64,000 nucleotides of DNA from the NCBI GenBank assembly GCA_963815655.1, contig CAWFHK010000001.1, forward strand, positions 1,697,201 through 1,761,200. The letters are read 5' to 3'. A model generated the notes under the pieces. It ran no database searches and had not been told where the DNA came from. It saw only the letters and a program-made list of their open reading frames with translations. Both the position numbers and the translations under genes were made by a program. Positions 3,943 through 59,982 of this stretch are shown one piece after another. This DNA is from an uncultured Acidobacteriota bacterium (GTDB lineage Bacteria; Acidobacteriota; Thermoanaerobaculia; UBA5066; Gp7-AA6). Position 1 is the first letter of the stretch; every line of letters begins with the position of its first letter.

Positions 3943-4289
3943 CCCGGGGTCGCCGTCATTGCTCTCTGCGGCACGCGGCGGCCAGGCCGAGTGGAAGAGC
4001 TCCGGGCCGCCGCTCCGGTCCGAGGGCACAGAAACAGTCCCTCTTCACTAGATTGTCGTGTGTGCCCTCGGACAGGGCCGCTGCCGGGCAACGCCGTCGC
4101 CCCCGGGCTGCAGTGTGGCCAGCCGGATCGTAGCCCCGGCGGCGGGCTCGCCTCCCGGAGGAGGCGTGAGAGAGGGAGCGCGCCACAGAACAACAATTGC
4201 CTCGATGCCAGTGCGACCGAACGACACGCGACGGCCCGGTTGTCTTATCGAGGCAGGGCCGTCGCGTGCCGACGCAGGGAGGCGAGCCC
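3943..4289 (+). mobile_element. MITE-like non-autonomous element, copy 1 (~350 bp, imperfect terminal inverted repeats)
   Basis: Shares ends (cccgggg..gcggcacgcggcggcc ... ggccgtcgcgtgccgacgcagg..gcccgacgccgggg) and the core ccccggcggcgggctcgcctcccggaggaggcgtgag.ga.ggagc with copies at 16127-16500 and 25875-26229. Confidence 0.5.
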
Positions 4290-4302: not shown

Positions 4303-6396
4303 CTATTTCGCCACGGACGCCATGGAGTTGCGGGCGAGCTCGAGGACGTCGAAGGGGGCGGTCGTGGCGCCGATCTCGTCTTTCGCGTTGCCGATCATGA
4401 CCATGCAGAAGGGGCAGGAGACGCCGACGGCGTCGGTGCCGGCTTCGGCGATCTCCTGCATTCGGGCCTGGTTGATCCGGCTGCCGAGCTTCTCTTCCAT
4501 CCACATGCGGCCGCCGCCGGCGCCGCAGCAGAGCCCGCGCTCGCGCGAGCGCGGCAGCTCCTTGAGGGTCAGGCCGGGGATGGATTCGAGGATCTGGCGG
4601 GGCGCGTCGTACACGCCGTTGTAGCGCCCGAGGTAGCACGGGTCGTGGAAGGTGATCGTCTGGGCGATCGGCGTCTCCATGCGAATGCGCCCCTCGGCGA
4701 TCAGTCGCGAGACGAGCTCCGAGCCGTGCATCACCTCGTAGCTGCCGCCGAGAGGAGCGTACTCGTTCTTGATGCAGTTGAAGCAGTGCGGGCAGTTCGT
4801 GACGATCTTCTTGACGCCGTAGCCGTTCAGCGTCTCGATGTTCTGCTGCGCGAGCATCTGGAAGAGGTACTCGTTGCCCATGCGGCGTGCCGAGTCTCCG
4901 TTGCAGGTCTCCTCGGTTCCGAGGATCGCGAAGGAGACGCCCGCGGCGTTCAGGATCTCGACGAGCGAGCGGGAGACGCGCTTGGCCCGGTCCTCGTAGG
5001 AGCCGGCGCACCCGACCCAGAAGAGGACCTCGATCTCCTTCCCTCCCGCTTCGGCCATCGTGACGACCGGCAGGTCCTTGGCCCAGTCGGCGCGCGAGGA
5101 GGCGGCGATCCCCCACGGGTTGCCGTTGGTCTCCATGCCGCGGAAGGCGGTCTGCATCTCTTTGGGGAACTCCGTCTTCTCGAGCACCAGGTGGCGGCGC
5201 ATCTCGATGATCTTGTCCACGGCCGGGATGATGAAGACCGGACAGGCGGACGTGCAGTAGCCGCAGGTCGTGCAGGCCCAGATCGAATCCTCGGAGATCC
5301 ATCCGCCGATCAGGTCCTTTCTCGGCGGCGCCGCCGTCGCGGAGGAGTCCGCCGCAGGCTCGGCGGAGGCGGACCCGTTTCCTCGGCCGGTCACCGAGGA
5401 CAGGATTTCCGGCGTGGCCTCGTACACGGCGTCGCGGAGCTGCCCGATGAAGATCTTGGGATCGAGCGGCTTGGACGTCAGCGCGGTCGGGCAGACGACG
5501 CGGCAGCGCCCGCACTCGGTGCACGTGTACCCGTCGAGCGCCGATTTCCAGGCGAGGTGCTCGACCCGCGAGACGCCGAAGTGCTCGGAGTTCTCGAGGT
5601 CCGGCGTTCCGAGGCGCCCCATCGGCTCGAGCTTCATCAGGAAGACGTTGGGGATGGCGGTCAGGATGTGGAAGTGCTTGGAGTACGGCAGGTAGTTCCC
5701 GAAGAAGAGGATGTCCACGAGGTGGACCCACCATCCGCCGGAGTAGAGGGCCCGGAGCGAGGCCGGACCGGCGCCGGCGACGAGGCCCGCGACGACCGCG
5801 ACGGCCGGCGCCCAGGCGCTCGCGAGCTCGGGCGAGAGCGCGACCTTCGCCCCTTCCGAGACGAGGTCCGCGACGATCAGGAGGCCGATCAGGAAGAGGA
5901 TCAGCCAGGCGTCCGGCGTCAGGTCGAGGCGCTTGGGACGCGCGAAGGCGCGGCGGATGACCGCCATCGTCACGCCCACGAGGACGAGGACTTCGAACAC
6001 GTCCTTGACGAGCGTGTAGATGTCGCCCGCGCGGCCGGGGAGCAGCGTGAACCCGGGGACGAGCCCCTCGACCACGAGCGCGCTCGTGCGGACGGTCAGG
6101 ACGAGGAAGCCCGAGAAGATGAGGAAATGGAAAGTCCCGGCGTAGCGGTCGCGAAACATCCGCTTCTGCAGGAACGCGTATTCGAGCGTCTTCCGGATCC
6201 GCAGGCCGATCCGGTCGAAGCGCGGCTCCGGCGAGAGGGCCAGCAGGAGCCGGATGCGCCGGCTAGCGGAATACGCGAAGACGAGGGCGGAGAGAAGGAG
6301 GAGGAGGCCGAAGAGAAGCCGGCCGCTGAGGCCGAGGATCATGTGGTCAGTGGGAAGCATGGAAGCAGAGTTTAAGGTGTCAGGGAAAAGTGACAC
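4303..6396 (-). CDS. Membrane-bound Fe-S oxidoreductase (HdrD/GlpC-like), probable EtfAB:quinone oxidoreductase partner
   Basis: 697 aa with a hydrophobic multi-TM N-terminal ~250 aa. Ferredoxin motifs CTECGRCRVVCP and CTTCGYCTSACP. Cys-rich CCG-type motifs CPHCFNC and CCGAGGG. Start abuts the etfA stop. Confidence 0.8.
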   Translation of the reverse strand: MSLFPDTLNSASMLPTDHMILGLSGRLLFGLLLLLSALVFAYSASRRIRLLLALSPEPRFDRIGLRIRKTLEYAFLQKRMFRDRYAGTFHFLIFSGFLVLTVRTSALVVEGLVPGFTLLPGRAGDIYTLVKDVFEVLVLVGVTMAVIRRAFARPKRLDLTPDAWLILFLIGLLIVADLVSEGAKVALSPELASAWAPAVAVVAGLVAGAGPASLRALYSGGWWVHLVDILFFGNYLPYSKHFHILTAIPNVFLMKLEPMGRLGTPDLENSEHFGVSRVEHLAWKSALDGYTCTECGRCRVVCPTALTSKPLDPKIFIGQLRDAVYEATPEILSSVTGRGNGSASAEPAADSSATAAPPRKDLIGGWISEDSIWACTTCGYCTSACPVFIIPAVDKIIEMRRHLVLEKTEFPKEMQTAFRGMETNGNPWGIAASSRADWAKDLPVVTMAEAGGKEIEVLFWVGCAGSYEDRAKRVSRSLVEILNAAGVSFAILGTEETCNGDSARRMGNEYLFQMLAQQNIETLNGYGVKKIVTNCPHCFNCIKNEYAPLGGSYEVMHGSELVSRLIAEGRIRMETPIAQTITFHDPCYLGRYNGVYDAPRQILESIPGLTLKELPRSRERGLCCGAGGGRMWMEEKLGSRINQARMQEIAEAGTDAVGVSCPFCMVMIGNAKDEIGATTAPFDVLELARNSMASVAK

Positions 6397-7362
6397 CTAC
6401 TCTTTCTTCACTTCCCTTACCGCTTTGGTCACCTCCGGCACCGTCTGGAAGAGGTCCCCCACGATCCCGTAGGTCGCGACCTTGAAGATCGGGGCTTCGG
6501 GGTCTTTGTTCAGGGCGACGATGACCTTGGAGGAGCCCATCCCGGCCAGGTGCTGGATCGCCCCTGAGATGCCGCAGGCGACGTAGAGCGTGGGCGACAC
6601 GACCTTGCCGGTCTGGCCCACCTGGTACTGGTGGTCGATCCAGCCGGCGTCCACGACCGCGCGCGAGGCGCCGAGGGCGGCTCCAAGAGCCTCCTGGAGA
6701 TCCCGGATCAGCGGCCAGTTTTCCGGGCCCTTGATGCCGCGCCCGCCCGACACGATGATGTCGGCTTCCGAGACGTCCAGCTCCTTCGAGGCCGAGGTCT
6801 CGACCTTCACGACCTTCGCGCGCGGGGCGATCGCGCCCAGATCGAGCGTCTCGACCCTCGGCTCCGCCGCGTCCGCGGCCTGCGCCGGGAAGACGTTCGG
6901 GCGCGTTGTCGCGACCTGGAGCGCCGCGTCGCCGCAGTCCACCTCCGCGCGCGCCTTGCCGGAATAGACGGGGCGCCAGCCCACGAGCTTCCCGTTCTCC
7001 ACGCGCAGGTCCATCATGTCCGCGAGCACCGAGACGCCGTTGCGCGCGGCGAAGCGCGGCGCGATGTCCTTGCCCATGGATGTCGCGGCGATCAGGACGG
7101 CGTCCGGGCTCTCCTTCTTCGCCGCCGCGTCGAGCGCGCCGACATACCCTTTCGCGCTGTAGAGCGCGAGATCGTCCTGGTCCGCGACATAGACCACGCC
7201 GGCGCCGTGCCTGCCCAGGCCGGCGGCGAGAGCCGCGACTCCCTTGCCCGGAAGGACCGCCGCGGCGGGTCCCCCGCCGAGCCGGCTCGCGAGCGACAGC
7301 GCTTCCAGGGAAGCCTTCCGGATCTTCCCTTCCCGCTGCTCGATGAAGACGAGGAATTTCAT
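6397..7362 (-). CDS. etfA: Electron transfer flavoprotein alpha subunit
   Basis: 321 aa; C-terminal FAD-binding region [11 protein letters not shown]...[16 protein letters not shown] is typical EtfA. Confidence 0.9.
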
Positions 7363-7374
7363 AGCTCAACCCCT

Positions 7375-7459
7375 GTCATTCTGAGGAGCGCAGCAACGAA
7401 GAACCTGCTCCGGCGCTTGCGAGAAACGAGAGCAGATCCTTCGCTCCGCTCAGGATGAT
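7375..7459. repeat. REP family A/B long imperfect hairpin (gtcattctgaggagcgcagc... / ...gcagatccttcgctccgctcaggatgat)
   Basis: The two arms are near reverse complements. Related copies at 8334-8488 and 10928-11150. Sits between etfB and etfA. Confidence 0.8.
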
Positions 7460-8271: not shown

Positions 8272-8333
8272 AGGAAGAGAGGTTGCCTAATAAACGGGCC
8301 GGAACGCAAGATGCAAAAACCTCCGCCGCTCAT

Positions 8334-8488
8334 GTCATCCCGAGGAGCGAAGCGACGAGGGATCTGCCAGGCGCGCGAGCAGATCCTTCGCTGAGCCTGT
8401 CCCGAGCGAACGATGCGACTCGAAGCCGCGAGAGCAGATCCCTCGCGTCGCTCGGGATGACAGCGAGAGCGAGGGGCTCGGGATGACA
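8334..8488. repeat. REP family A/B composite repeat
   Basis: gtcatcccgaggagcgaagcgacgagggatctgcc ... gagcagatccttcgctgagcctgtcccgagcgaacgatgcgactcgaagccgcgagagcagatccctcgcgtcgctcgggatgaca, near-identical to 2327-2412 and 10984-11060. Confidence 0.85.
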
Positions 8489-8498
8489 TCACTCCGGA

Positions 8499-9755
8499 CT
8501 AAACTCTCTTGAAGACCAGGCAGCCGTTGGTGCCGCCGAAGCCGAAGGAATTGGAGAGGGCGTGGCGGATCGGCGCGGAGCGCGCCGTGTTCGGGACGTA
8601 GTCCAGATCGCACTCCGGGTCGGGGGTCTCGTAGTTGGTCGTCGGCGGCATCACCTGGTTCTCCACCGCGAGCGCGCAGATCGCGCTCTCGAGCCCCCCG
8701 GCGGCGCCGAGGAGGTGCCCCGTCATGGACTTGGTGGACGAGATCGCGACCTTCCGGGCGTGAGGACCGAAGACCATCTTGATGGCCATCGTCTCAACCT
8801 TGTCGCCGGCCGGCGTCGAAGTGCCGTGGGCGTTGATGTAGTCCACGTCCTCCGGGTTGATCCCGGCGTCTTCCAGGGCGTTGCGCATGACGCGCGCCGG
8901 CCCGTCGCCGTCCTCCGAAGGGGCCGCGATGTGATACGCGTCGCCCGACATGCCGTACCCGGCGAGCTCGCAGTAGATGTGGGCGCCGCGCTTCCTCGCC
9001 GCTTCCATCTCCTCCAGGATGACGAGGCCCGCTCCCTCCCCGATGACGAAGCCGTCGCGGCCGCGGTCCCAGGGGCGCGACGCGTGCTCCGGGTCGTCGT
9101 TGCGCGTCGAGAGGGCCCGCATGACCGCGAAGCCCCCCACGGCCAGCGGCGTCATCACGGATTCGGCCCCGCCGGCGATGGCGGCGTCGGCGTCGCCGTA
9201 CTGGATCTTGCGGTACGCCTCGCCGACCGCGTGCGCGCCCGTCGTGCAGGCCGTCACGGTCGCCAGGTTGGGGCCCTTCAGGCCGTACTTGATCGAGATG
9301 TTTCCCGCCGCCTCGTTGACGATGAGGCCCGTGATGAAAAACGGGGAGATGACCCGCGCGTTGTTGCCGCTCTCGACATACTCGCGGCAGGTCTTCTCGA
9401 TGAGGGGGAGGCCGCCGATGCCGGACCCGACCACGACGGCGATCCGCTCCCGGTTGGCGTCGGTCACCGGGAGGCCCGAGTCCTCCATGGCGAAGTGGGC
9501 GGCCCCCATCGCGTAGTGGATGAAGGTGTCCATCTTCTTGATCTCCTTCTTCTCGATGAAGAGAGAAGGATCGAACCCCTTGACCTCGGCCGCGATGCGG
9601 CACGTGAAGGGGGACGGGTCGAAGCGGGTGATCGGGCCCACGCCGTTCCTGCCGGCGAGGAGCGCCTCCCAGTTGGCGGCGTTCCCGATCCCGACCGGCG
9701 AGACGAGGCCCAGTCCCGTCACGGCCACCCGGCGGGGAGAGGAGAAACGGGGCAT
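8499..9755 (-). CDS. fabF: Beta-ketoacyl-ACP synthase II
   Basis: 418 aa; RRVAVTGLGLVSPVG, active-site region ATVTACTTGAHAVGEA, C-terminal NSFGFGGTNGCLVF. Confidence 0.93.
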   Translation of the reverse strand: MPRFSSPRRVAVTGLGLVSPVGIGNAANWEALLAGRNGVGPITRFDPSPFTCRIAAEVKGFDPSLFIEKKEIKKMDTFIHYAMGAAHFAMEDSGLPVTDANRERIAVVVGSGIGGLPLIEKTCREYVESGNNARVISPFFITGLIVNEAAGNISIKYGLKGPNLATVTACTTGAHAVGEAYRKIQYGDADAAIAGGAESVMTPLAVGGFAVMRALSTRNDDPEHASRPWDRGRDGFVIGEGAGLVILEEMEAARKRGAHIYCELAGYGMSGDAYHIAAPSEDGDGPARVMRNALEDAGINPEDVDYINAHGTSTPAGDKVETMAIKMVFGPHARKVAISSTKSMTGHLLGAAGGLESAICALAVENQVMPPTTNYETPDPECDLDYVPNTARSAPIRHALSNSFGFGGTNGCLVFKRV

Positions 9756-9778
9756 GATTTTTCTATCGGGGCACGAGA

Positions 9779-10018
9779 TCAGTTCTGCGAGGAATTCTTC
9801 TCGATGTAGGCGACGGCGTCCTTGACCTTCTGGATCTTCTCGGCGGCTTCGTCCGGGATCTCGATGTTGAACGCTTCTTCGAATGCCATGACGAGCTCGA
9901 CGGTGTCAAGAGAATCCGCGCCGAGGTCGTCCACGAAAGAGGCTTCCGGAGTGACCTCGTTGGCATCCACTCCGAGCTGCTCGACGATGATGCTCTTGAC
10001 CTTCTCTTCCACACTCAT
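9779..10018 (-). CDS. acpP: Acyl carrier protein
   Basis: 79 aa; [18 protein letters not shown] phosphopantetheine-attachment motif. Confidence 0.95.
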
Positions 10019-10061: not shown

Positions 10062-10126
10062 GTTTCAGGTTTCAGGTTTCAGGAACCCTCCCGTCCTCCT
10101 GAAACCTGGAACCTGAAACCTGAAAC
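10062..10126. repeat. Inverted heptamer micro-array hairpin, (GTTTCAG)x3 ... (CTGAAAC/CTGGAAC)x4, between fabG and acpP
   Basis: gtttcaggtttcaggtttcagg aaccctcccgtcct cctgaaacctggaacctgaaacctgaaac read directly. Confidence 0.9.
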
Positions 10127-10128
10127 CC

Positions 10129-10872: not shown

Positions 10873-10927
10873 GGGCAGAGTCTATCTTTCCGCGCCCTGT
10901 CCATTTCCGAGCCCGTCCCCGCCCCCT

Positions 10928-11150
10928 GTCATTCTGAGGAGCGCAGCGACGAAGAATCTGCCCCTCGGGAGTGGAAAGCACCGGAGCAGATCCCTCGCGG
11001 AGCCTGTCCCGAGCGGATGATGCGACTCGAAGCAGTGAGAGTAGATCCCTCGCTTCGCTCGGGATGACAGAGAGAGCGAGGGGCTCGGGATGACAGAGAG
11101 AGCGAGGGGCTCGGGATGACAGTGGGCAGCGAGGGGCTCAGGATGACAGA
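10928..11150. repeat. REP family A/B composite repeat ending in a 26-nt unit tandemly repeated three times
   Basis: gtcattctgaggagcgcagcgacgaagaatctgc ... gagcagatccctcgcggagcctgtcccgagcggatgatgcgactcgaagcagtgagagtagatccctcgcttcgctc, then (gggatgacagagagagcgaggggctc)x3. Confidence 0.85.
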
Positions 11151-11160
11151 GAAATGGAAC

Positions 11161-11200
11161 CGGCTACTTTGGACCTTGGACCTTGGACCTTGGACCCTCG
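11161..11200. repeat. (GGACCTT)x4 heptamer array; 40-nt sequence repeated in inverted orientation at 21445-21484
   Basis: cggctactttggaccttggaccttggaccttggaccctcg versus reverse complement of 21445-21484, gggctactttggaccttggactttggaccttggaccctcg. Confidence 0.9.
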
Positions 11201-11202
11201 CC

Positions 11203-12165
11203 TCATTTCGGCTTGTCCACGATGTCCGGCAGGTCGCGGCTCCACGTGTCCACGATGGCCTTCGCCACGTCGGCGATGGCGAGCACCGAGGGGTGATCCG
11301 CGGAGCTGACGACGTCGGCCTTGCTGCCGTCGGTCAGGACGACGAGGACGAACCTCCCCTTCTTCGTCCGGAGGACGCCGGAGTCGTTGCGCACGCCGCG
11401 CATCGAGCCGGACTTGCCGGCCCAGAGCATCTCGGACGGGAAGCGCCGCGCGATCCGCTGGCGCGTGGGGTCTTTGTCGAGGTACTCGAAGATCCTGCGG
11501 GAGGACTCGGCGCCCAGGACCTCCCCGCTCGCGACGCGCCCCATCCAGTCCGCCAGCTCGGCCGGCGTGACCGAGCCCAGGCGAAACCCCCGCCACGGAG
11601 AGGGGTCGTCGTGGGCGTGCGCGAGCGAAGGGATCATGCCGAAGAGATGGATGTGGGGAAGGCCCATCGCCGCCATGCGCGCGTTGATGGCGTCGATGCC
11701 CAGCCGCTCGATCCAGGCGTTGGTGGCGGTGTTGTCGGAGGGGCCGATCATGAGCGTGACGAGGTCGTTCCACGTCGGGTTGAGCCCCGCGTCCAGCATC
11801 AGGAGCATCCCCGAGCCGTCCGCCTTCTTCTCCTCGGAGAGAGTCCAGCGGTCCGACAGCGAGATCGTCCCGTCTTTCACCCGGGCCATCGCCTCGGTCA
11901 GGATGGCGATCTTGATGACCGACGCCGACTCGAATTCTCCGGCGCCGTTCTTCTCGTAGGTCCGGCCGCTCTCCAGGTGCCTCGCCGCGACCCCGATGCG
12001 GCACGCGCAGCGGCGCGAGGCGGCCTCCACCGCCGCGTCGATCGGGGAAGCCTTGCCTCCCTTCCCCACCGTCGCGCACCCCCCGGCAAGGAGGGCGCCG
12101 ACAACAACGAGGAGGATCCTCCCGGCTCCCCGAAACTTGAAACCTGGAACCTGAAACCTCTTCAC
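11203..12165 (-). CDS. Class A beta-lactamase-fold serine hydrolase, probable lipoprotein or secreted protein
   Basis: 320 aa; SVIK (SxxK), SDN (GPSDNTATN) and KSG (AGKSGS) motifs. N-terminal hydrophobic stretch ending LLAGGC. GTG start overlaps the fabD stop (GTGA). Confidence 0.75.
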   Translation of the reverse strand: MKRFQVPGFKFRGAGRILLVVVGALLAGGCATVGKGGKASPIDAAVEAASRRCACRIGVAARHLESGRTYEKNGAGEFESASVIKIAILTEAMARVKDGTISLSDRWTLSEEKKADGSGMLLMLDAGLNPTWNDLVTLMIGPSDNTATNAWIERLGIDAINARMAAMGLPHIHLFGMIPSLAHAHDDPSPWRGFRLGSVTPAELADWMGRVASGEVLGAESSRRIFEYLDKDPTRQRIARRFPSEMLWAGKSGSMRGVRNDSGVLRTKKGRFVLVVLTDGSKADVVSSADHPSVLAIADVAKAIVDTWSRDLPDIVDKPK

Positions 12166-13076
12166 GCGTCCCCTCCGTAAGACTCGACCGCGATGCCCTT
12201 CTCGATCCGGCGCACCAGTCCCGCCAGCACCTTCCCCGGCCCGATCTCGAGCGCCCGATCGACTCCTTCTCGAGCGAGGATCCGCACGGATTCGACCCAG
12301 CGCACCGGGGCGTCCACCTGGGCGAGCAGGGCCTCGCGCAGGAGCGATCCCCGCGACTCGGGACGGGCGTCCACGTTGGTGACGACGGGGATCGCGGCGT
12401 CCAAGAAGCGCGTCTCCTCCAGGAGCGGCCGCAACCGCTCGCGGGCGGGAGCCATGAGGGAGCAGTGGAAGGGAGCGGACACGGAAAGCGGGATCGCGCG
12501 CCTGGCGCCCCGCGCCGAGCAGGCCGCGCAGGCGCGCGCGACGGCTCCGGCGTGGCCGGCGATCACCGTCTGCTCCGGAGAGTTGAAGTTGGCCGGCGAG
12601 ACGACCTCTCCCTGCGCGGCTTCCCCGCAGGCGGCCTCGACCTCCTCGGGAGAGAGCCCGATGATCGCCGCCATCGCGCCCACGCCGGCGGGCACCGCTT
12701 CCTGCATGAAGACGCCTCGCTGGCGAACGAGCCGCACGGCGTCCGCGAAGGAGAGAACGCCCGCCGCGACCTCCGCCGAGTATTCGCCCAGGGAATGTCC
12801 CGCGGCGAAGCCCGCTCCTTCGATCCGCTCCGGAAAGCGCGCCTGGAGTTCGCGCCAGGCGGCGATCGAGTGCGCCAGGATGGCCGGCTGCGTGTTCGCG
12901 GTCCGCTGGAGCTCCTCCTCGGGCCCCTCGAAGCAGAGCCGCGACAGCGCGAAACCGAGCGCCGTGTCCGCCTCTTCGAACACCGCCCGCGCCGCCGGAG
13001 AAGCCCCGCAGAGATGCTTCCCCATTCCGACGAACTGGGAGCCCTGGCCGGGAAAAAGGAGAGCGAGTCTGCTCAT
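12162..13076 (-). CDS. fabD: Malonyl-CoA:ACP transacylase
   Basis: 304 aa; LFPGQGSQ and GHSLGEYSA active-site motifs. Confidence 0.93.
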   Translation of the reverse strand: MSRLALLFPGQGSQFVGMGKHLCGASPAARAVFEEADTALGFALSRLCFEGPEEELQRTANTQPAILAHSIAAWRELQARFPERIEGAGFAAGHSLGEYSAEVAAGVLSFADAVRLVRQRGVFMQEAVPAGVGAMAAIIGLSPEEVEAACGEAAQGEVVSPANFNSPEQTVIAGHAGAVARACAACSARGARRAIPLSVSAPFHCSLMAPARERLRPLLEETRFLDAAIPVVTNVDARPESRGSLLREALLAQVDAPVRWVESVRILAREGVDRALEIGPGKVLAGLVRRIEKGIAVESYGGDA

Positions 13077-15182: not shown

Positions 15183-15288
15183 GCTAGGCTCCTGATCTCC
15201 CGGATTGCACGGTCCGGGAATTATAACGACACCCCGGGGCCGCGAGGCGTCAGGCGCCGGCAATCAGGCGAACCGCGAGAAGGCTTCG

Positions 15289-15320
15289 TCTCCCGCCTCC
15301 CGCCTCCCGCCTCCCGCCCC
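15289..15320. repeat. (CTCCCGC)x4 heptamer array between rpmF and plsX
   Basis: tctcccgcctcccgcctcccgcctcccgcccc read directly; no inverted partner seen nearby. Confidence 0.85.
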
Positions 15321-16032: not shown

Positions 16033-16126
16033 GATGGAACCGGCTATTTTAGCCGCCCGCCGACCGGAGTCAAACGGACGAAGCCGTCCAGTAGTGGGTC
16101 ATTTTGCAGTTGTGGCCAAGACCACG

Positions 16127-16500
16127 CCCCGGAGCCGTCGGCATTTCCCTGCGTCGGCACGCGCCGACCTGCCGCAAGGGGAAGACCTGGCCGGCGCTGA
16201 GGTTCCTCGCAATCTCACCGTGGCGCCGGTCGCGCTCTTCCATGCTCGTCACCCATGGCTTTCGGCCGCGGGCGGTCGCTGCGCGACCAAGCGGCCGAGA
16301 GATTCCAAACGGGAGTTCCGGAGTGCGGCGTCCCGGTGGAGCCGAAGTGAAGCCCCGGCGGCGGGCCCGCCTCCCGGAGGAGGCGTGAGCGAAGGAGCAG
16401 GGAGGGTCCTACCCTCGCCACGCTGCCTGTGCGACTGAGCGACAAAGCCACGGCCAGGTTCTCACTGTCAAGGCCGGGCCGTTGTCAGCGCGGCCGATGC
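16127..16500 (+). mobile_element. MITE-like element, copy 2 (right end degenerate)
   Basis: ccccggagccgtcggcatttccctgcgtcggcacgcgccgacctgccgc...gcgctcttccatgctcgtcacccat...ccccggcggcgggcccgcctcccggaggaggcgtgagcgaaggagc. Long near-identical stretches with the reverse complement of 25875-26229. Confidence 0.5.
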
Positions 16501-16510: not shown

Positions 16511-16541
16511 GGCTGAGAGCTGAAAGCTCAGAGCTGATAGC
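16511..16541. repeat. (GCTGANA)x4 heptamer array directly upstream of the first glycosyltransferase
   Basis: ggctgagagctgaaagctcagagctgatagc; same-orientation array at 19994-20025. Confidence 0.8.
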
Positions 16542-16549
16542 TTCTTTCC

Positions 16550-17665: not shown

Positions 17666-18804
17666 CGCGGATCGGCATCGACGCGCGCAAGCTGAAGGAC
17701 TACGGCATCGGTTCCTACATCCGCAACCTCCTCGAGGCGATCGGCAGGCTCCCCGAGTCCCGCGCCTACCGCTTCCGCGTGTACGCGCGCCGCGCCGACG
17801 GCGACGACCTCCCGGACCTGCCCGAGCACTTCGAGGTCTCGTACGACGATTCCCCCGGCTATTCCGTCGCGGAGTTGACGCGCTTCGCCTGGAGGCTGAT
17901 GCGGGACCGGCTCGACCTGTTCCACGCGACGCACTACGTCCTGCCGCCTCTCTGGAGGAGGAAGACCCGCGCCGTGGTGACGATCCACGACATCATCCAT
18001 CTGCTCTACCCGCAGTTCCTTCCCAACCGCGCGGCGCTTCTCTACGCGCGCTTCATGATCCGGCGGGCGCTCACGCGCGCCGACCGCATCGTCACCGTCT
18101 CGGAAAACACGCGGCGGGACCTCGTGGACTACTTCGGGATCCCGGCCGCGCGCATCGAGGTGATCTACAACGGCGTCTCTCCCCGGTTTCACCCCGACAT
18201 TCCCCGCGAGGAGAAGGAGCGCGTCGCCGCGAAGCTCGGGCTCACGTTTCCGTATCTCCTTTTTCTCGGCGGCGAGAAGCCGCACAAGAACGTCCAGAAC
18301 GTGGTCCGCGCGTTCGCGAAGGCCCGGCAGGAGCGGTCGCTTCCGCACCGGCTCGTGCTCGCCGGCGCTCTGCCCCCCAACCCGGCCCGGCTGGACGCCC
18401 TGATCGCGGCGCTCGAGCTGACGGCGGCCGTGCGCCGCCCCGGCGTGGTCGAGGATGCGGACCTGCCGGCGCTCTTCGCCGGCGCGGAGGCGTTTCTCTA
18501 CCCGACGCTGTACGAGGGCTTCGGCCTCCCGGTCGTGGAGGCGATGGCCTGCGGAACCCCGGTCCTGACCTCCGCGACCTCGGCCCTTCAGGAGATCGCG
18601 GGCGCCAATGCCCGCCTCGTGGATCCCATGGACGTGGACGCCATCGCGTCGGGCATCGCGAGCCTGGCGACGGACGCGGAGGCCCGAGCGGAGCTCGCCG
18701 CGCTCGGGAAGAGGCGCGCCCTCGACTTCTCCTGGGACAAGGCCGCCCGCCGCACCCTCGACGTCTACGCCGCCGCCCTCCGCGCCGCAGGGCGGAGGAC
18801 GTAA
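17662..18804 (+). CDS. Glycosyltransferase, GT4 family
   Basis: VTRIGIDARKLKDYGIGSYIRNL... and EGFGLPVVEAMACGTPVL. GTG 17662 overlaps the upstream TGA (GTGA). The track ORF 16870-18804 is an upstream over-extension of this frame. Confidence 0.85.
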   Translation: MTRIGIDARKLKDYGIGSYIRNLLEAIGRLPESRAYRFRVYARRADGDDLPDLPEHFEVSYDDSPGYSVAELTRFAWRLMRDRLDLFHATHYVLPPLWRRKTRAVVTIHDIIHLLYPQFLPNRAALLYARFMIRRALTRADRIVTVSENTRRDLVDYFGIPAARIEVIYNGVSPRFHPDIPREEKERVAAKLGLTFPYLLFLGGEKPHKNVQNVVRAFAKARQERSLPHRLVLAGALPPNPARLDALIAALELTAAVRRPGVVEDADLPALFAGAEAFLYPTLYEGFGLPVVEAMACGTPVLTSATSALQEIAGANARLVDPMDVDAIASGIASLATDAEARAELAALGKRRALDFSWDKAARRTLDVYAAALRAAGRRT

Positions 18805-18895
18805 GACGTGAAACGTGAAACGTGAGACGGAAGACGTGAGCAAGACGAACGGATCTCTCGGCGCTTCGTTTGACGTTTCACGTCTGACGTCTCAC
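18799..18895. repeat. Inverted heptamer micro-array hairpin (ACGTGAR family)
   Basis: acgtaagacgtgaaacgtgaaacgtgagacggaagacgtgag ... tcgtttgacgtttcacgtctgacgtctcacg; lies between two glycosyltransferase genes. Confidence 0.85.
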
Positions 18896-18909
18896 GGCTC
18901 CGGTGGCTC

Positions 18910-20037
18910 ATGAGGACCGCCGTCGTTCACGACTGGTTGAACGGGATGCGGGGGGGCGAGAAGGTCCTCGAGGCGATGCTGCCGCTCCTGCCGGAGCCGA
19001 CGGTCTTCACGCTGTTTCATGTCCCGGGATCCGTGTCGGGCGGAATCGAGAAATATCCGATCCGCGTCTCGTCCCTGAACCGCCTCCCCTTCGCGCGCAA
19101 GCACTACCGGCACTACCTGCCCCTCTTTCCGCGCGCCGTCGAGTCGTTCGATCTCTCGGGCTTCGACCTCGTCGTCTCCTCCTCCCACTGCGTCGCCAAG
19201 GGGGCGATCGCGCCGCCGGGCGTCCCGCATCTCTGCTACTGCCACACCCCGGTGCGCTACGCCTACGAACAGTTGGACGCGTACTTCCCCGCCGGGCGCA
19301 CGCGCTGGCGGGCGCTCAAGACCTTCGCCGTCGGCCGCCTGCGCCGCTGGGACCAGGAGACAGCGGGGAGGCCGGCTCGGTATCTGGCCAACTCTTCCGC
19401 CGTGGCCGAGCGGATCCGCCGCCACTACGGGCGGGAGGCGTCTGTCTGCCACCCTCCGGTGGACGTGGATTTCTTCACGCCGGGACCCGAGGGACGCGGG
19501 AGCTTCCTCCTCGCCGTCGGGGCGCTCGTCCCCTACAAGAGATACGAGGAGGCGATCGCGGCCGCTCGCGGCGTGGGCCGGCCGCTCGTCCTCGTGGGAG
19601 GCGGGCCGGAGGAGAAGCGCCTCCGCGCTCTGGCCGGTCCCTCCGTAGAGATCCTCGTGAACCTCGCCCCGGAAGAGTTGCGCCGGCTCTACCGGACCTG
19701 CGCCTTCTTCGTCCAGCCCGGCGAGGAGGACTTCGGCATGGCGGCGGTCGAGGCGCTCGCCTGCGGCGCTCCCGTCGTGGCGCTCTCGCGCGGCGGGGCG
19801 CGCGACGTCGTGCGCGACGGCGTCAACGGCCTGCTCTACGGCCCGGAAGAGCCCGGCGGCCTCGCGGGCGCGGTCGAGCGCGCGGCCCGGATCCGGTTCG
19901 ATTACACTGCTTTGCGCGAGTCGGCGCTCCCCTTCGCCCGGGAGCGCTTCGAGCTGCAATTCCGGCAGGAGGTAGACGCCCTGCTCCGAGAGAAAGCTGA
20001 GAGCGGAAAGCTGACAGCTGAGACCTTCGTCGAATGA
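18910..20037 (+). CDS. Glycosyltransferase, GT4 family
   Basis: 375 aa; MRTAVVHDWLNGMRGGEKVLE N-terminus and EEDFGMAAVEALACGAPVV. Confidence 0.85.
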   Translation: MRTAVVHDWLNGMRGGEKVLEAMLPLLPEPTVFTLFHVPGSVSGGIEKYPIRVSSLNRLPFARKHYRHYLPLFPRAVESFDLSGFDLVVSSSHCVAKGAIAPPGVPHLCYCHTPVRYAYEQLDAYFPAGRTRWRALKTFAVGRLRRWDQETAGRPARYLANSSAVAERIRRHYGREASVCHPPVDVDFFTPGPEGRGSFLLAVGALVPYKRYEEAIAAARGVGRPLVLVGGGPEEKRLRALAGPSVEILVNLAPEELRRLYRTCAFFVQPGEEDFGMAAVEALACGAPVVALSRGGARDVVRDGVNGLLYGPEEPGGLAGAVERAARIRFDYTALRESALPFARERFELQFRQEVDALLREKAESGKLTAETFVE

Positions 20038-21444: not shown

Positions 21445-21484
21445 CGAGGGTCCAAGGTCCAAAGTCCAAGGTCCAAAGTAGCCC
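21445..21484. repeat. (AAGGTCC)x4 heptamer array, inverted copy of 11161-11200
   Basis: cgagggtccaaggtccaaagtccaaggtccaaagtagccc. Confidence 0.9.
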
Positions 21485-24690: not shown

Positions 24691-24790
24691 AATCGGGTGA
24701 TCGGGTGATCGAGCCATCGGGTGATCGCAGGCAATACCGGTCTCTTCGCATTTCAATCACCCGATCACCCGATCGCAGATCACCCGATTC
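24691..24790. repeat. Inverted micro-array hairpin (GATCACCC family) between MoxR and DUF58 genes
   Basis: aatcgggtgatcgggtgatcgagccatcgggtgatcg ... caatcacccgatcacccgatcgcagatcacccgattc. The core gatcacccgatcgcagatcacccgattcc also occurs at 34906-34966 and (reverse complement) 59326-59362. Confidence 0.9.
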
Positions 24791-25874: not shown

Positions 25875-26229
25875 CCCCGGCGTCGGGCCCGCCTGCCTCG
25901 TCGGCACGCGCCGGCCCGGCCGCGACAGGCAGAGCCTGGCCGGCGCTGGTCGCTCAGTCACACTGGCAGCGAGACGAATTCAGTCTTCTCTCATGCTCCT
26001 TCGCTCATCGCCTCCTCCGGCAGGCGGACCCGCCGCCGGGGAATCGCATCTCAGCTTCACGGAGAGCCCTGGAGACGGCGGCGTTTCCCGGAGGAGGCGA
26101 TGGGTGACGAGCATGGAAGAGCGCGACCGGCGCCACGATGAGACTGCGAGGAACCCTCAGCGCCGGCCGGTTCTTCGCGTTGCGGCAGGCCGGCGCGTGC
26201 CTCCAAGGGAAACGCCGCCGGCTCCGGGG
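25875..26229 (-). mobile_element. MITE-like element, copy 3 (inverted relative to copies 1 and 2; both TIRs intact)
   Basis: Ends cccccggcgtcgggcccgcctgcctcgtcggcacgcgccggccc ... ggccggcgcgtgcctccaagggaaacgccgccggctccgggg are imperfect reverse complements. Internal sequence matches 16127-16440. Confidence 0.55.
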
Positions 26230-26255
26230 CGTGTTTTTCGCGACAATCCCTTCGA

Positions 26256-29950: not shown

Positions 29951-29956
29951 AGAGCC

Positions 29957-30089
29957 GGTGCTCGGCCTTCGGCGCTCGGTGTTCGGGTGAAGGAATCGGT
30001 GTTCGGTTTTCGGTGTTCGGTGTTCGGGTGAAGAACGATGCCGGCGCGTTCCTGAAAACCGCACACCGCACGCCACGCACCGCGCACCG
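29957..30089. repeat. Inverted heptamer micro-array (GGTGTTC / CGGTGTG family) downstream of recA
   Basis: ggtgctcggccttcggcgctcggtgttcgggtgaaggaatcggtgttcggttttcggtgttcggtgttcgggtg ... gaaaaccgcacaccgcacgccacgcaccgcgcaccg; overlaps the 5' end of the next ORF. Confidence 0.85.
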
Positions 30090-32892: not shown

Positions 32893-32899
32893 CGCGCAC

Positions 32900-32945
32900 G
32901 GGGAGACGGGGAGACTGGGAGACTGGGAGACTGGGAGACTGGGGG
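32900..32945. repeat. (TGGGAGAC)x5-6 octamer array, left arm flanking the tusA-like gene
   Basis: ggggagacggggagactgggagactgggagactgggagactggggga. Confidence 0.9.
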
Positions 32946-32953
32946 ACGCTAGC

Positions 32954-33190
32954 ATGGGAGGCGTGACCGATCCCGAAGTCGTCGTCGATGCCAGGGGATT
33001 GTATTGTCCGATGCCGGTCCTTCGACTCGCGAAGGCGTTCCGCGGCGCGCGGGTCGGAAGCGTCGCGCGCCTGCTGGCGACCGACCCAGCTTCCGTCGAG
33101 GACGTGAACGTTTTCTGCCGCGAACGCGGCCACGGTCTCCTCGAATCGATTCGTGAAGGTGACGTGTTCCTCTTCCGCGTCCGAAAGTGA
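32954..33190 (+). CDS. TusA/SirA-family sulfur-carrier protein
   Basis: 78 aa from ATG 32954: MGGVTDPEVVVDARGLYCPMPVLRLAKAF... The CPxP motif is the family hallmark. The track ORF start (32861) lies inside the octamer array. Confidence 0.8.
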   Translation: MGGVTDPEVVVDARGLYCPMPVLRLAKAFRGARVGSVARLLATDPASVEDVNVFCRERGHGLLESIREGDVFLFRVRK

Positions 33191-33232
33191 TCTCCCAGTC
33201 TCCCAGTCCCTCAGTCCCTCAGTCTCCCAGTC
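33191..33232. repeat. (TCTCCCAG)x5 octamer array, right arm; reverse complement of 32900-32945
   Basis: tctcccagtctcccagtccctcagtccctcagtctcccagtc starts at the nucleotide after the tusA-like stop codon. Confidence 0.9.
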
Positions 33233-34845: not shown

Positions 34846-34966
34846 AATCGGGTGATCGGATGATCGGGTGATCGGATGACGAGTGGTCCGTGGACTGATG
34901 GTGTTCGATCACCCGATCGCTCGATCGCAGATCACCCGATTCCTCCTCGCCCGATCACCCGATTCC
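34846..34966. repeat. Inverted micro-array hairpin (GATCACCC family) between purH and the lolA-like gene
   Basis: caatcgggtgatcggatgatcgggtgatcgga ... cgatcacccgatcgctcgatcgcagatcacccgattcctcctcgcccgatcacccgattcc. Confidence 0.9.
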
Positions 34967-34968
34967 TC

Positions 34969-35574
34969 ATGGCGCCCCTGCTCCTCCTTGCGGGGACCAT
35001 TTCCCCTGGCGTCAAGACCCTTCTCGACCGGGTCTCCTCGCTTTACGGCGACGGCGCCGCGCACGCGGCGTCCTTCACGCAGACGTACACTCCCGCGGGC
35101 TTCGCGGCGGCGCGGCACGAGTCCGGCACCGTTTGGATCCAGGCGCCGCAACGTCTGAGGTTCGACTACGCGAGCGCCGAGAAGAAGGTCTTCACCTACG
35201 ACGCGGGCGAAGGCCGGCTCTGGACGCCGGAGGACAAGCAGCTCACGATCCGGAAGCTCTCCGCCGAGGACCGCGCCCGGCTGCCGATCGTCTTCCTCTC
35301 CGACCGGTCGGAGCTCGAACGCCAGTACGCGATCGCGCTCGAGAACACCGAGGCCGGCGTCGGACTGGTGCTGACGCCCCACTCCCCCAGGCCCGACCTC
35401 GCCTGGGTCCGACTCTCCATCGGGAAGGATGGGGCCATCCTGGGCCTGGCCTACCAGGATTCCTCCGGCAGCCGGACGGAATTCCACTTCGAGGGGTGGA
35501 AGAAGGAGAAACCCCGTCCGGCCTCCGAATACCGGGTCGCCGGCCCGCCCGGCACCCGCATCCTGGAGAATTGA
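34969..35574 (+). CDS. LolA-like outer-membrane lipoprotein carrier family protein
   Basis: 201 aa from ATG 34969. FTQTY...G.VWIQAPQRLRFDY...FTYDAGEGRLWTPEDKQ pattern resembles the LolA fold. The track start (34876) lies in the repeat. Confidence 0.65.
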   Translation: MAPLLLLAGTISPGVKTLLDRVSSLYGDGAAHAASFTQTYTPAGFAAARHESGTVWIQAPQRLRFDYASAEKKVFTYDAGEGRLWTPEDKQLTIRKLSAEDRARLPIVFLSDRSELERQYAIALENTEAGVGLVLTPHSPRPDLAWVRLSIGKDGAILGLAYQDSSGSRTEFHFEGWKKEKPRPASEYRVAGPPGTRILEN

Positions 35575-37375: not shown

Positions 37376-37391
37376 GGGGGAGCCGAAGAGA

Positions 37392-37412
37392 GGTTTCAGG
37401 TTTAAGGTTTCC
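37392..37412. repeat. GTTTCAG-family array (left arm flanking AT-rich island plus TPR gene)
   Basis: ggtttcaggtttaaggtttcc; reverse-complement arm at 37985-38006. Confidence 0.8.
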
Positions 37413-37574
37413 TAAAGAAACAAGGCAATTATGTATATATTCCTAATATAATTAGGATAATTCGCTGATCTTATTGAATTGACATGACAGAATTCGAGTC
37501 TGAGGCTTGCCGTATAAAAGAAGGCAAGTTAGTGGAAAAGCCGAAAGATTTCTTGATTCATTAAGAAACGGGGC
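37413..37574. other. AT-rich island (about one-third G+C by hand count) with a 15-bp palindrome and small hairpins
   Basis: caaggcaattatgtatatattcctaatataattaggataattcgctgatcttattgaattgacatg... Palindrome CCTAAT-ata-ATTAGG at 37442-37456. Hairpins cttgcc(N11)ggcaag and tttctt(N8)aagaaa. Confidence 0.8.
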
Positions 37575-37580
37575 TATACT
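37553..37580 (+). promoter_or_regulatory. Candidate sigma-70 promoter TTGATT-N16-TATACT, 7 nt upstream of ATG 37588 (would give a leaderless mRNA)
   Basis: ttgatt (37553-37558), 16-nt spacer, tatact (37575-37580), then cggggca ATG. No SD-like sequence before the ATG. Confidence 0.4.
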
Positions 37581-37587
37581 CGGGGCA

Positions 37588-37989
37588 ATGAGACTGGCTG
37601 CCTGGAACAGTCTGGCAACCACCTTCAAGCACCTCTCTTCCCTTCTCCCGGCCCGCGAGGACTCCGAGGAAGAGGCCCGTCTCTACTACCGCCGCGCTTG
37701 TCTCGCCGCCACCGAGGAGAGGTACGACGTGGCGCTCATCTTCTGCGCCAAGGCGGTGGATCTGGATCCGGATGACCTGGCGACCCGGCTTCTCATCGCG
37801 CAGATCCACGACTACGGCCTGCACGACTTGAACGCCGCCGTGGCCGCCTATCGAAAGGTCATCGCCCTGGCCGCCTACGACAACGAGAATCCCTACCGCG
37901 CGGCCGCCGGCGAGGCGCTGGACAACCTCCTGAGAGACCGACAGGTCCCCATCAAGACGTCCGTCCTGACAGTGGTTCCGGGTTCCTGA
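37588..37989 (+). CDS. Small TPR-like hypothetical protein
   Basis: 133 aa from ATG 37588 (MRLAAWNSLATTFKH...). YYRRACLAATEERYDVALIFCAKAVDLDPDD resembles a TPR unit. The track's TTG start at 37507 lies in the AT-rich island and looks unlikely. Confidence 0.55.
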   Translation: MRLAAWNSLATTFKHLSSLLPAREDSEEEARLYYRRACLAATEERYDVALIFCAKAVDLDPDDLATRLLIAQIHDYGLHDLNAAVAAYRKVIALAAYDNENPYRAAAGEALDNLLRDRQVPIKTSVLTVVPGS

Positions 37990-38006
37990 AACCTGAAACC
38001 CGAAAC
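37985..38006. repeat. CTGAAAC-family array (right arm), overlapping the TPR gene stop
   Basis: cctgaaacctgaaacccgaaac. Confidence 0.8.
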
Positions 38007-38021: not shown

Positions 38022-38591
38022 TCACTCCCTCGGATACCCCCACGGGTACATCGGCGGCTTGCCCCAGACTCCCGCCGGGGAACCTCCACCGCGCGAGAGG
38101 ACCGCCTGCGACAGGCTCACGCGCCACCTCCCGTCCGACACGACGCTTCGCACCCCCGGCAGGTCGAGACAGAAGAGGACGCCCCCGGCGCCCGTCGGGC
38201 TCTCGGCCTCGATCACCGCGCGGTTGAGACCGGTCACGAGGACAGGCGCGACCTCGAGGACTTTCAGGCGGCTGCCCGGCCGCTGCTCGGAAGCGGGGAA
38301 CCTCGTTCCGTTCAGGATCAGGGAGCCGCGACGGTCCACGAAGAGCTTCGCCTTTGCGGAAACGGGTACGGTCTCCAGCCGGAAGTCGCGTTCGGCATAG
38401 AAGCGCAGCGGCCCGGGCTGCTTGATGTCCAGCCGGAACCAGATCCAGCGGGCCGCGCCGGTCACGAGCGCGCCTTCGCGCGAGCTCCCGGCCCGGGCGA
38501 GGACGACGGCCGCCGCGACGACCAGGAGAGCGATCAGGACGGGCGCCGCGCGAATCGAACGAAGAACGGGAGGCCGGTTTTCTTGACGCAA
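38022..38591 (-). CDS. Hypothetical membrane-anchored protein (single N-terminal TM, beta-rich ectodomain)
   Basis: 189 aa, TTG start; AAPVLIALLVVAAAVVLA anchor; ARWIWFRLD...FYAERDFRL...LFVDRRGSLILNG suggests a beta-sandwich-like domain. No family recognised. Confidence 0.5.
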   Translation of the reverse strand: MRQENRPPVLRSIRAAPVLIALLVVAAAVVLARAGSSREGALVTGAARWIWFRLDIKQPGPLRFYAERDFRLETVPVSAKAKLFVDRRGSLILNGTRFPASEQRPGSRLKVLEVAPVLVTGLNRAVIEAESPTGAGGVLFCLDLPGVRSVVSDGRWRVSLSQAVLSRGGGSPAGVWGKPPMYPWGYPRE

Positions 38592-41878: not shown

Positions 41879-41946
41879 CGGTTTTCAGTATTCGGTGATC
41901 GCGAAGTGCCCCGGCCCGCACACCGCACACCGAATACCCGAAAAAC
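41879..41946. terminator. Inverted micro-array hairpin (CGGTGTT/AACACCG family) between convergent kdsA and the GGDEF gene
   Basis: cggttttcagtattcggtgatcgcg ... cacaccgcacaccgaatacccgaaaaac; terminator role inferred from position only. Confidence 0.4.
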
Positions 41947-48935: not shown

Positions 48936-49090
48936 GGACGCGAGACGTTAACACTCCCCCGGTCGGAAACGTCTGAGGATCGGGACTCGACCTGAGCGCC
49001 TCGCCCGACTCGTCCCTCCCCCTCCCGAGGCGACCCGCGAAAAAGTCCTTCGGGGCGAGGAGCGGGCGCTGGAGTCGTGGAGGTGGGTCA

Positions 49091-49119
49091 CCAATCCCCA
49101 ATCCCCAATTCCCAATCAC
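49091..49119. repeat. (CCCCAAT)x3-4 heptamer array
   Basis: ccaatccccaatccccaattcccaatcac. Confidence 0.85.
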
Positions 49120-59892: not shown

Positions 59893-59897
59893 GAGGG

Positions 59898-59970: not shown

Positions 59971-59982
59971 TCGAGAGCGCCG

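Follow-up and report, generated by a model that had tools for sequence, protein, structure and literature searches.

Arrays of seven- and eight-nucleotide repeats, often in inverted pairs, at gene junctions of an uncultured Acidobacteriota bacterium

Background

In a 64,000-nucleotide (nt) stretch of the genome of an uncultured Acidobacteriota bacterium (assembly GCA_963815655.1, contig CAWFHK010000001.1, positions 1,697,201 to 1,761,200; this whole stretch is called the window below), many gaps between genes are occupied by short arrays of a 7- or 8-nt unit repeated head to tail, and many of these arrays are followed by an array of the complementary unit. The window has a G+C content of 68.7% and is approximately 87% coding. 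It contains a fab cluster in the order yceD-rpmF-plsX-fabH-fabD-(beta-lactamase-like)-fabG-acpP-fabF, and Pfam also confirms MoxR next to DUF58, KdsD (CBS) next to KdsC (HAD), TatC, TusA, PurH and LolA. A reading made from the sequence alone (the sequence-only reading) had noticed the arrays and had named the junctions fabH-fabD, fabG-acpP, MoxR-DUF58 and kdsD-kdsC among their sites, and by Pfam these names are correct.

The closest matches of the FabD protein are in metagenome-assembled genomes (MAGs) labelled Acidobacteriota or Thermoanaerobaculia, with 89%, 77% and 73% identity. One ENA contig, L001, is 94-99.8% identical to the window over 17.7 kb and carries arrays at the corresponding junctions, and six further relatives from ENA, JGI and NCBI, whose PurH proteins are 83-90% identical, show the same kind of array. 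Arrays with a period of 7 are also found in loci from Terriglobales, Pyrinomonadaceae, Blastocatellia and Thermoanaerobaculaceae.

Period and placement of the arrays

Every site named in the sequence-only reading is an array of 7- or 8-nt units according to Tandem Repeats Finder (TRF), and a period scan of my own with shuffle controls agrees that all 20 listed arrays are present, although the site at 41879-41946 holds only about two units per arm. In the period scan of the window, 16 arrays are found with period 7 (0.2 in shuffles) and four with period 8 (none in shuffles), while periods 9 to 14 give no array at all and periods 4 and 5 are at chance level. The arrays keep strictly to a step of 7 or 8 nt.

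The placement at gene junctions, also proposed earlier, is borne out: called genes contain only one of the 20 arrays, which leaves 19 outside, and of the 34 gaps of at least 40 nt, 18 are occupied. In this lineage the density is about one array per 3 kb, and essential operons, the fab operon and the kds genes among them, contain arrays. At least nine unit families occur in the window; GTTTCAG is the commonest with six sites, ATCGGGTG has three, and the family GTTCAAG is found at two sites in the relative L086. The expectation that an array is usually followed by its reverse complement holds for a part of them only, as about 9 of 17 window elements are tight inverted pairs, whereas five or six arrays are solitary and two pairs enclose a gene, tusA in one case and a TPR gene in the other, with arms 245 and 573 nt apart, respectively. 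Over all acidobacterial loci, 23 hairpins were collected. The elements are as follows, with the number of units after x, the folding energy of the RNA and its z score against shuffles where computed, and L002 denoting a further relative.

6375-6398: unexpanded 8-bp mini-hairpin (GGTGTCA, loop, TGACACC), immediately past the ETF-alpha stop
10062-10127: fabG-acpP hairpin, GTTTCAG x3, 14-nt spacer, CCTGAAA x4 (or, in the other register, CTGAAAC x4), 1 nt past the minus-strand fabG stop; -39.3 kcal/mol, z -5.2; one unit more in L001
11166-11196, minus strand: solitary GGTCCAA x4 (sense), 6 nt past the stop of the beta-lactamase-like gene; three units in L001
12132-12159, minus strand: solitary AGGTTTC x4 (sense), 2 nt past the fabD stop; unchanged in L001, GCGGTGY x3 at the equivalent place in L002
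13091-13164: fabH-fabD hairpin, GTTTCAG x4 / CTGAAAC x4, 8 nt past the fabH stop; -48.7 kcal/mol, z -7.9
15287-15318, minus strand: solitary GGCGGGA x4 (sense), 5 nt past the rpmF stop, matching the G-quadruplex motif; L001 carries CGGTTTC x5 in this gap, 27 nt past the stop
16512-16542, plus strand: GCTGANA x4 in a divergent gap, 7 nt upstream of a glycosyltransferase start; the remaining arm of a hairpin that L001 and L002 keep whole, the missing arm being replaced by a dispersed element of about 370-400 nt
18799-18900: hairpin ACGTGAR x5 / YTCACGT x4 between two glycosyltransferase genes, with the upstream TAA stop within the first unit; -48.6 kcal/mol, z -3.6; GGGACAC/GAGTCCC arrays in L001
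19992-20025, plus strand: GCTGANA-like x4 in the final 45 nt of the glycosyltransferase gene 18910-20037, the sole array within a called gene
21449-21479, plus strand: solitary GGTCCAA x4, 11 nt past a stop in a 208-nt convergent gap
24692-24788: MoxR-DUF58 octamer hairpin, ATCGGGTG / ATCACCCG, 3 nt past the MoxR stop; -60.7 kcal/mol, z -7.1
29956-30089: weak, imperfect inverted arrays TCGGTGT / ACCGCAC, 5 nt past a stop; z -1.15
32898-32947, plus strand: GGGGAGAC x6, 5 nt past the stop of a gene of 959 amino acids (aa), left partner of the pair that encloses tusA
33191-33232, plus strand: TCTCCCAG x5, immediately past the tusA stop, with the purH start 35 nt downstream; right partner of that pair
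34847-34970: PurH-LolA octamer hairpin, ATCGGRTG / GATCRCCC, 4 nt past the purH stop and extending into the 5' coding region of lolA; -65.6 kcal/mol, z -4.1
37391-37411, plus strand: GGTTTCA x3, 15 nt past the polyprenyl-synthase stop
37985-38006, minus strand: GTTTCRG x3 (sense of gene 38022-38591), 15 nt past the stop of that gene and overlapping the stop codon of the convergent TPR gene
41879-41946: weak hairpin CGGTWTT / ACACCGM between convergent genes, whose stops are 32 and 60 nt away
49088-49117, minus strand: solitary (GGGGATT) x4 in a divergent gap
59328-59423: KdsD-KdsC octamer hairpin, 5 nt past the stop, with the 3' arm ending in the kdsC ATG; -56 kcal/mol, z -4.8
59897-59971: hairpin GTTTCAG x4 / CTGAAAC x4 between the convergent kdsC and tatC, 4 and 11 nt from their stops; -45 kcal/mol, z -7.5

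The two GGTCCAA sites, 11161-11200 and 21445-21484, are two copies of one 40-nt solitary element that follows a stop. The idea that the two mark the ends of an invertible or composite element of 10 kb was rejected, because both have the same orientation to their own upstream gene and the order of the fab operon is canonical.

Position and polarity with respect to genes

Arrays usually begin 0-15 nt past the upstream stop codon. In a hand-checked table, read in the orientation of the gene, the distance is 1-15 nt for approximately 16 of the 20 window arrays, and sometimes the stop codon lies within the first repeat unit. This anchoring persists where the gap leaves ample room, with distances of 6 nt in a gap of 330 nt, 11 in 208 and 15 in 212. 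An automated count in the relatives gives 28 of 57 elements at most 15 nt from a stop and 18 of 57 at most 5 nt; both are lower bounds, since the count overlooks short genes and weak first arms. The bias extends to 81 GTTTCAG arrays from diverse metagenome contigs of 30-69% G+C: 34 of them have their 5' edge against a stop on the same strand, compared with 13 for the opposite orientation, and many read TAG directly followed by GTTTCAG. At the other end, the next start codon lies 0-17 nt past the 3' arm at five co-directional junctions.

The two arms of a hairpin are not interchangeable. Among the 23 acidobacterial hairpins, G exceeds C in the 5' arm of 19 out of 22 (one being tied), and G+T makes up more than half of the 5' arm in 20. 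The dinucleotide AG, once per unit, is present in the 5' arm of 19 hairpins and in the 3' arm of only 4 of the 23, the 3' arm carrying CT; counted by unit family, AG is exclusive to the 5' arm in 11 families and exclusive to the 3' arm in none (p = 0.001). The same order is kept in the metagenome sample, where the partner CTGAAAC is found downstream of GTTTCAG 14 times and upstream once.

There is also a preference for certain units. The core TCAG or its complement CTGA occurs in 17 of 61 distinct heptamers, against about 3 expected, and on viral contigs GTTTCAG x3 matches 32 loci and GTGTCAG x3 matches 40, as compared to 1, 2, 5 and 2 for permutations of the same composition, so that NNNTCAG arrays are approximately 6 to 40 times commoner than permutations of equal composition. 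Tandem arrays of the two units are carried by 32 and 40 contigs of viral or prophage origin, respectively (loci L208-L286). The idea that units are chosen because they contain stop codons in all frames was rejected, because the 5' arm of GTTTCAG has no stops and that of ATCGGGTG does, which makes the polarity inconsistent.

Folding and terminators

The arms are complementary, giving stems of about 21-35 bp, and RNA folding places seven of eight hairpins at -39 to -66 kcal/mol, with z scores of -3.6 to -7.9 against shuffles. The sequence-only reading had likened the arrays to hairpins formed by the short tandemly repeated repetitive (STRR) sequences of cyanobacteria, and the heptamers and octamers do fold; the arrays at 29957-30089, which it had included, fold no better than shuffles.

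It had also held that the arrays are not simple operon-end terminators, and this stands. Several lie inside operons, no U-tract (a T-run in the DNA) follows any array hairpin in the window, so that they lack one half of the stem-loop and U-tract that make up a Rho-independent terminator, and a scan for canonical terminators finds 16 in the window where shuffles give 11 +/- 3.6, a number no higher than chance, and the hits include no array hairpin. At the gathering threshold of Rfam no array is matched, the sole match in the window being a tRNA at 2660-2731. The quadruplex motif G3+N1-7 is matched by four arrays (15299, 32900, 33202 and 59394) and not by the GTTTCAG, GGTCCAA, ACGTGAR or TCGGTGT arrays.

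Turnover between relatives

A comparison of orthologous junctions shows that copy number and unit differ, or that the array is absent altogether, between close relatives. The window and L001, from strains with 96-99% identity, differ in copy number by whole units: 3 against 4 at fabG-acpP, and 4 against 3 for GGTCCAA. The unit itself may be exchanged, as at fabH-fabD, where GTTTCAG in the window corresponds to GATTTTG/CAAAATC in L001 and to GGTGRAA in L002. At MoxR-DUF58 the units are ATCGGGTG, GTTGTCA, GGCGKRA or GTTCAAG, each with its complementary arm, and L085 has TGAGGAATG without a hairpin. After the gene of 939-959 aa one finds GGGGAGAC, GGAGTCA, GAGTGAC, GAGCGGG or nothing, the last being the case in L083 and L087, where the gene has 939 aa. 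The favourite family differs between genomes as well, being GTTTCAG in the window, GTTCAAG in L086 and GGCGTNA in L002 and L084.

Some short inverted repeats have counterparts in relatives that are expanded into arrays. Where the window has only the mini-hairpin after ETF-alpha, L001 is 120 nt longer, in the form of GGTGTCA/CCTGACA arrays. At the start of lolA, relatives such as L085 have the unexpanded inverted repeat GGAATC..GATTCC, and the window and L086 have octamer arrays; in L086 the coding region is lengthened in frame by 75 nt after GTG ATC, with the hairpin at 11585-11670, and in the window (34876-34970) an in-frame ATG lies inside the loop of the PurH-LolA hairpin. Since this hairpin runs into the 5' coding region of lolA, gene callers give LolA 232 aa rather than about 207. 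Arrays thus displace start-codon calls, for lolA as well as for DUF58 and the gene of 959 aa, and they are hotspots of length variation between strains.

The hairpins at 24692-24788 and 59328-59423 share 30 identical nt that include one irregular unit, which argues for copying between sites, while their loops are not alignable. Mixed arrays, in which GTGTCAG is followed by GTTTCAG or GTTTCAG by GTTTTAG, are present in the metagenome sample and fit a turnover like that of satellite DNA. A compound array of GGTTCGA x4, GGTTTTA x7 and CCCCAGT/CCCCGGT x8 was seen in a MAG of the Desulfuromonadales (L017, 2076-2214); its unit CCCCAGT is the classical STRR1 unit.

Neighbouring elements

A dispersed element of about 230 nt, resembling a miniature inverted-repeat transposable element (MITE) and headed by 1-4 copies of the 26-nt tandem repeat GTCATCCCGAGCCCCTCGCTCTCTCT, often adjoins a heptamer array. 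It is found in the window at 10919-11149, 8333-8488, 7370-7444 and 2327-2413 and in L001 at 8561-8717, 11268-11499 and 12412-12618, and its copy number and presence vary between the two. A second dispersed element, of about 370 nt, lies at 16110-16480, with a reverse copy at 25912-26246 (73%) and a partial one at 4121-4262; the segment 16088-16483, which is absent from L001, took the place of one arm of an AGCTNTC hairpin.

Between the GGTTTCA array and the TPR gene (37588-37989) lies an island of 176 nt (37412-37587) with 36% G+C in a genome of 69% G+C, which could be a promoter or leader. The gene tusA is on the plus strand in the window (32954-33190), L084 (9440-9697) and L085 (about 9730-9945), on the minus strand in L083 (9712-9942) and L087 (372-614), and absent in L086 (9912-10001). 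An inversion of tusA by way of the flanking inverted arrays is unsupported, as L083 and L087, in which the gene is inverted, lack flanking arrays. A structured insert of about 200 nt upstream of purH in L084 (9700-9980) is bordered on both sides by ACGCCTC arrays of the same strand and has the look of a further small element that entered an array.

The octamer units at 24692-24788, 34847-34970 and 59328-59423 each contain a GATC site, with GGTGATC in the 5' arm. This heptamer is complementary to GAUCACC, which lies near the 3' end of 16S rRNA, and the arms would therefore resemble extended Shine-Dalgarno arrays, sequestered by copies that mimic the anti-Shine-Dalgarno sequence.

Interpretation

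I consider it about an even chance (a probability of roughly 0.5) that the arrays are hypervariable, slippage-driven hairpins of simple sequence repeats which act in mRNA as 3'-end or intercistronic structures. Replication slippage would create and resize the arrays, and the complementarity of the arms would be kept by template switching within the hairpin, by selection for pairing or by both; template switching in hairpins is an established route of quasi-palindrome correction in E. coli. Units would turn over in the manner of satellites, by mutation and subsequent local amplification, and some families would be copied from junction to junction. The transcript is predicted to fold into a stem of 21-35 bp directly behind the terminating ribosome, where it could block 3' exonucleases, offer a double-stranded substrate to RNase III, or pause or terminate transcription without a U-tract. 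Where the 3' arm touches the next start codon, downstream initiation might be made to depend on upstream translation; a ribosome at the stop would open the base of the stem and thereby expose the start codon. The observations that speak for this explanation are the specificity of the period, the intergenic placement, the stable folds, the anchoring at stop codons, the changes by whole units, the growth in place, the conservation of the architecture while units are replaced, the contact with start codons at five junctions, the mixed arrays, and canonical terminators not exceeding chance. In the literature, STRR hairpins have been assigned the same roles (PMC2670836).

Several points weigh against it. 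Solitary arrays, about one third of the total, cannot form a local hairpin, and two arrays sit in divergent promoter gaps, which do not suit such a role. Slippage alone explains neither the anchoring at stops, nor the fixed polarity, nor the preference for NNNTCAG, and copying between sites is needed for the shared 30 nt. The role in RNA is one that I infer from the sequence, and the sense fold is favoured in 5 hairpins versus 7 for the antisense fold, with a mean difference of +1.8 kcal/mol; as the folds are equally stable on both strands, G-U wobble pairs show no selection on the sense RNA.

Alternatively, the arrays may be functionless by-products of a polymerase biased to slip by 7 nt, tolerated just past stop codons, decaying and regrowing at random. 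I regard this as possible, if rather unlikely. The loss or exchange of units at orthologous junctions (TGAGGAATG in L085 at MoxR-DUF58, no array in L083 and L087 after the gene of 939 aa) and the lack of a strand bias in fold energy would be expected, and an excess of heptanucleotide repeats in many bacteria, noted in 2007, has been ascribed to polymerase slippage (Mrazek 2007, as cited in PMC4692102). However, mere tolerance sits badly with arms that are complementary in every unit family, with short arrays that still abut the stop codon in gaps of 200-330 nt, with a polarity as strict as the G excess and the exclusive AG of the 5' arm, and with the 6- to 40-fold prevalence of NNNTCAG arrays over permutations of the same composition.

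A protein-binding platform is less probable. The protein could be a ring-shaped RNA binder like HutP that reads an XAG triplet every 7 nt, or a DNA-bending global regulator of the IHF/HU kind, as suggested for Geobacter. The formation of the hairpin would depend on whether the 5' arm is bound. The uneven distribution of AG between the arms would suit such a protein, most solitary arrays past stops bear AG on the sense strand, and a TCAG core is common to MTYCTGA in Geobacter and TAACTGA in Beggiatoa. HutP itself recognises the A and G of XAG motifs that are 7 nt apart (PMC2425495). On the other hand, spacer bases and entire units vary between sites, several families (ATCGGGTG, TCGGTGT) have no AG, and in the octamer families the spacing is out of step with a 7-nt register. 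A candidate protein did not emerge, and the scanned window proteins include nothing like HutP, which is known as a protein of the Bacillus group.

A narrower form of this proposal, that the arrays are landing pads for a multimeric XAG reader with 7-nt spacing, similar to HutP or TRAP, must be called improbable, and it is drawn by analogy. The AG-bearing 5' arm would be bound as it exits the polymerase, just behind the stop codon, which would account for the constant polarity as well as the surplus of TCAG units. Through its control of whether the hairpin forms, such a reader would, if it exists, adjust termination, processing or the coupling of translation at more than half of all gene junctions, and a single NNNTCAG code would extend across Acidobacteriota, MTYCTGA in Geobacter, and TAACTGA in Beggiatoa and cyanobacteria. 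A dedicated protein behind the polarity and the XAG rule would sharply raise the interest of these arrays.

It is very unlikely that the arrays are small non-autonomous mobile elements, similar to REPINs or MITEs and mobilised by a transposase whose gene lies elsewhere in the genome. One family does occur at several junctions of a genome (GTTTCAG at six, ATCGGGTG at three, GTTCAAG at two in L086), the 30 nt with their irregular unit are shared by two junctions, and presence differs between strains. However, the arrays do not agree with MITEs, which are characterised by terminal inverted repeats, a conserved interior and a target-site duplication: loops are unalignable between copies, and filled and empty sites (at ETF-alpha, MoxR-DUF58 and lolA) reveal no target-site duplication. 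The boundaries of the difference at ETF-alpha fall within repeat units, copy number shifts by whole units, and no transposase adjoins any array.

I hold it to be more doubtful still that the arrays work as structures of the DNA, such as cruciforms or G-quadruplexes, which affect replication, recombination or supercoiling. Four arrays match the quadruplex motif, (GGGGATT)n at 49088 matches a G-quadruplex repeat of Nostoc (PMC4692102), fold energies are symmetric between the strands, and tusA, flanked by inverted arrays, has opposite orientations among relatives. The commonest family, GTTTCAG, cannot form a quadruplex, though, and the relatives with an inverted tusA have no arrays around it; the anchoring at stops and the orientation to genes suggest a link with gene expression and not with replication. 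An assembly artefact, finally, is practically out of the question, as arrays occur at the same junctions in independent ENA, JGI and NCBI assemblies and in more than 100 metagenome contigs.

Comparison with known systems

Knowledge of tandem heptamer repeats in bacteria dates back to 1990. The sequence-only reading had regarded the STRRs as the only analogue and the inverted pairs and the diversity of units as distinctive, neither of which can be upheld: there are precedents in Xanthomonas and Geobacter metallireducens (PMC4692102 and PMC2700814), and in the latter paired arrays of several families are known. Given these and the cyanobacterial precedents, the architecture and the multiplicity of families are not new, and the arrays are the acidobacterial version of the STRRs, of the GGGAATC pairs of Xanthomonas and of the paired hepta- and octanucleotide arrays of Geobacter. 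They share with the STRRs the head-to-tail 7-nt units in at least three copies and the dispersal over many intergenic sites (20 arrays in 64 kb), and with Geobacter and Xanthomonas the opposite-strand arrays, here in several families and nine tight window pairs.

The closest parallel is in G. metallireducens, for which one paper describes 24 pairs of GTTGCTYN x4, 21 pairs of TCTCCGTS(Y) x3, 8 pairs of MTYCTGA x5, one of them between proB and proA, and 49 elements of GGACCGG x4 (Aklujkar 2009, PMC2700814). The paired sites are on opposite strands at variable distance, are absent from G. sulfurreducens and were proposed to be binding sites of a global regulator (IHF/HU). As in the Acidobacteriota, there are several families with units of 7-9 nt in 3-5 copies, mostly in opposite-strand pairs at many sites, also within operons and absent or replaced in a sister species, and MTYCTGA holds the CTGA/TCAG core. 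The phylum and the units differ, and anchoring at stops, polarity and turnover between strains are not reported in the passages of the paper that were consulted.

In Xanthomonas, 70-75 convergent GGGAATC pairs per genome, most often with 4 units, lie between genes; closely related species differ in the length and sequence of the arrays but agree in whether they are single or paired (Rehm 2015, PMC4692102). The likeness consists of intergenic heptamer arrays in convergent pairs that vary between close species; the difference is that Xanthomonas has one G-rich family, read as a G-quadruplex, whereas here there are at least nine families, of which the commonest cannot adopt that structure.

The units of STRR1-3 are CCCCAGT, TTGGTCA and CAACAGT, and GTTTCAG, GGTCCAA, ACGTGAR, ATCGGGTG and the other units found here do not match them. 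Both kinds are tandem heptamers dispersed between genes, with hairpins inside operons, but the STRRs belong to cyanobacterial hosts of low G+C. STRR hairpins lie between hupS and hupL in several cyanobacteria, and transcript stability or translational coupling has been proposed as their function (PMC2670836). Direct repeats of TAACTGA are intergenic, with a strict orientation to the neighbouring gene, in Beggiatoaceae, cyanobacteria and Bacteroidetes (MacGregor 2015, PMC4679880). They share the CTGA core, and their reverse complement TTATCAG is an NNNTCAG unit, but they are mostly solitary, with a single inverted case, and end about 1 nt upstream of start codons (PMC4679880), whereas the arrays described here are often inverted pairs past stop codons.

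Other systems are more remote. HutP melts its terminator from 5' to 3' and the motifs it reads are spaced by 7 nt (U498, U505, U512; PMC2425495). XAG triplets at this spacing in the 5' part of a hairpin also recall TRAP, but the match is formal only. Those systems have a single regulated leader per operon and a known protein, and the arrays are at dozens of housekeeping junctions. The REP/BIME (REPIN) elements of enterobacteria and pseudomonads are extragenic hairpins, often just past stops, which stabilise the upstream mRNA and form genome-specific families. REPs are single imperfect palindromes of conserved sequence, linked to RAYT transposases, whereas the arms described here are tandem 7-nt units and form no single palindrome. 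The core sites of integron attC are R''/L''-L'/R' (RYYYAAC ... GTTRRRY); the units do not fit this consensus, and as the flanking genes are housekeeping operons, attC sites were rejected.

What is new is the phylum, the density in core operons, and the rules of stop anchoring, polarity and unit preference, for which no statement turned up in the compared papers. The rules can be tested: arrays start at the stop codon, the G/T-rich arm bearing AG comes first, NNNTCAG is preferred, and arrays grow from short inverted repeats. Cultured carriers in which they can be checked are Geobacter metallireducens, Xanthomonas and Nostoc, and the acidobacterial lineage itself offers a good natural series, with many sequenced relatives that have other units or empty sites at the same junction.

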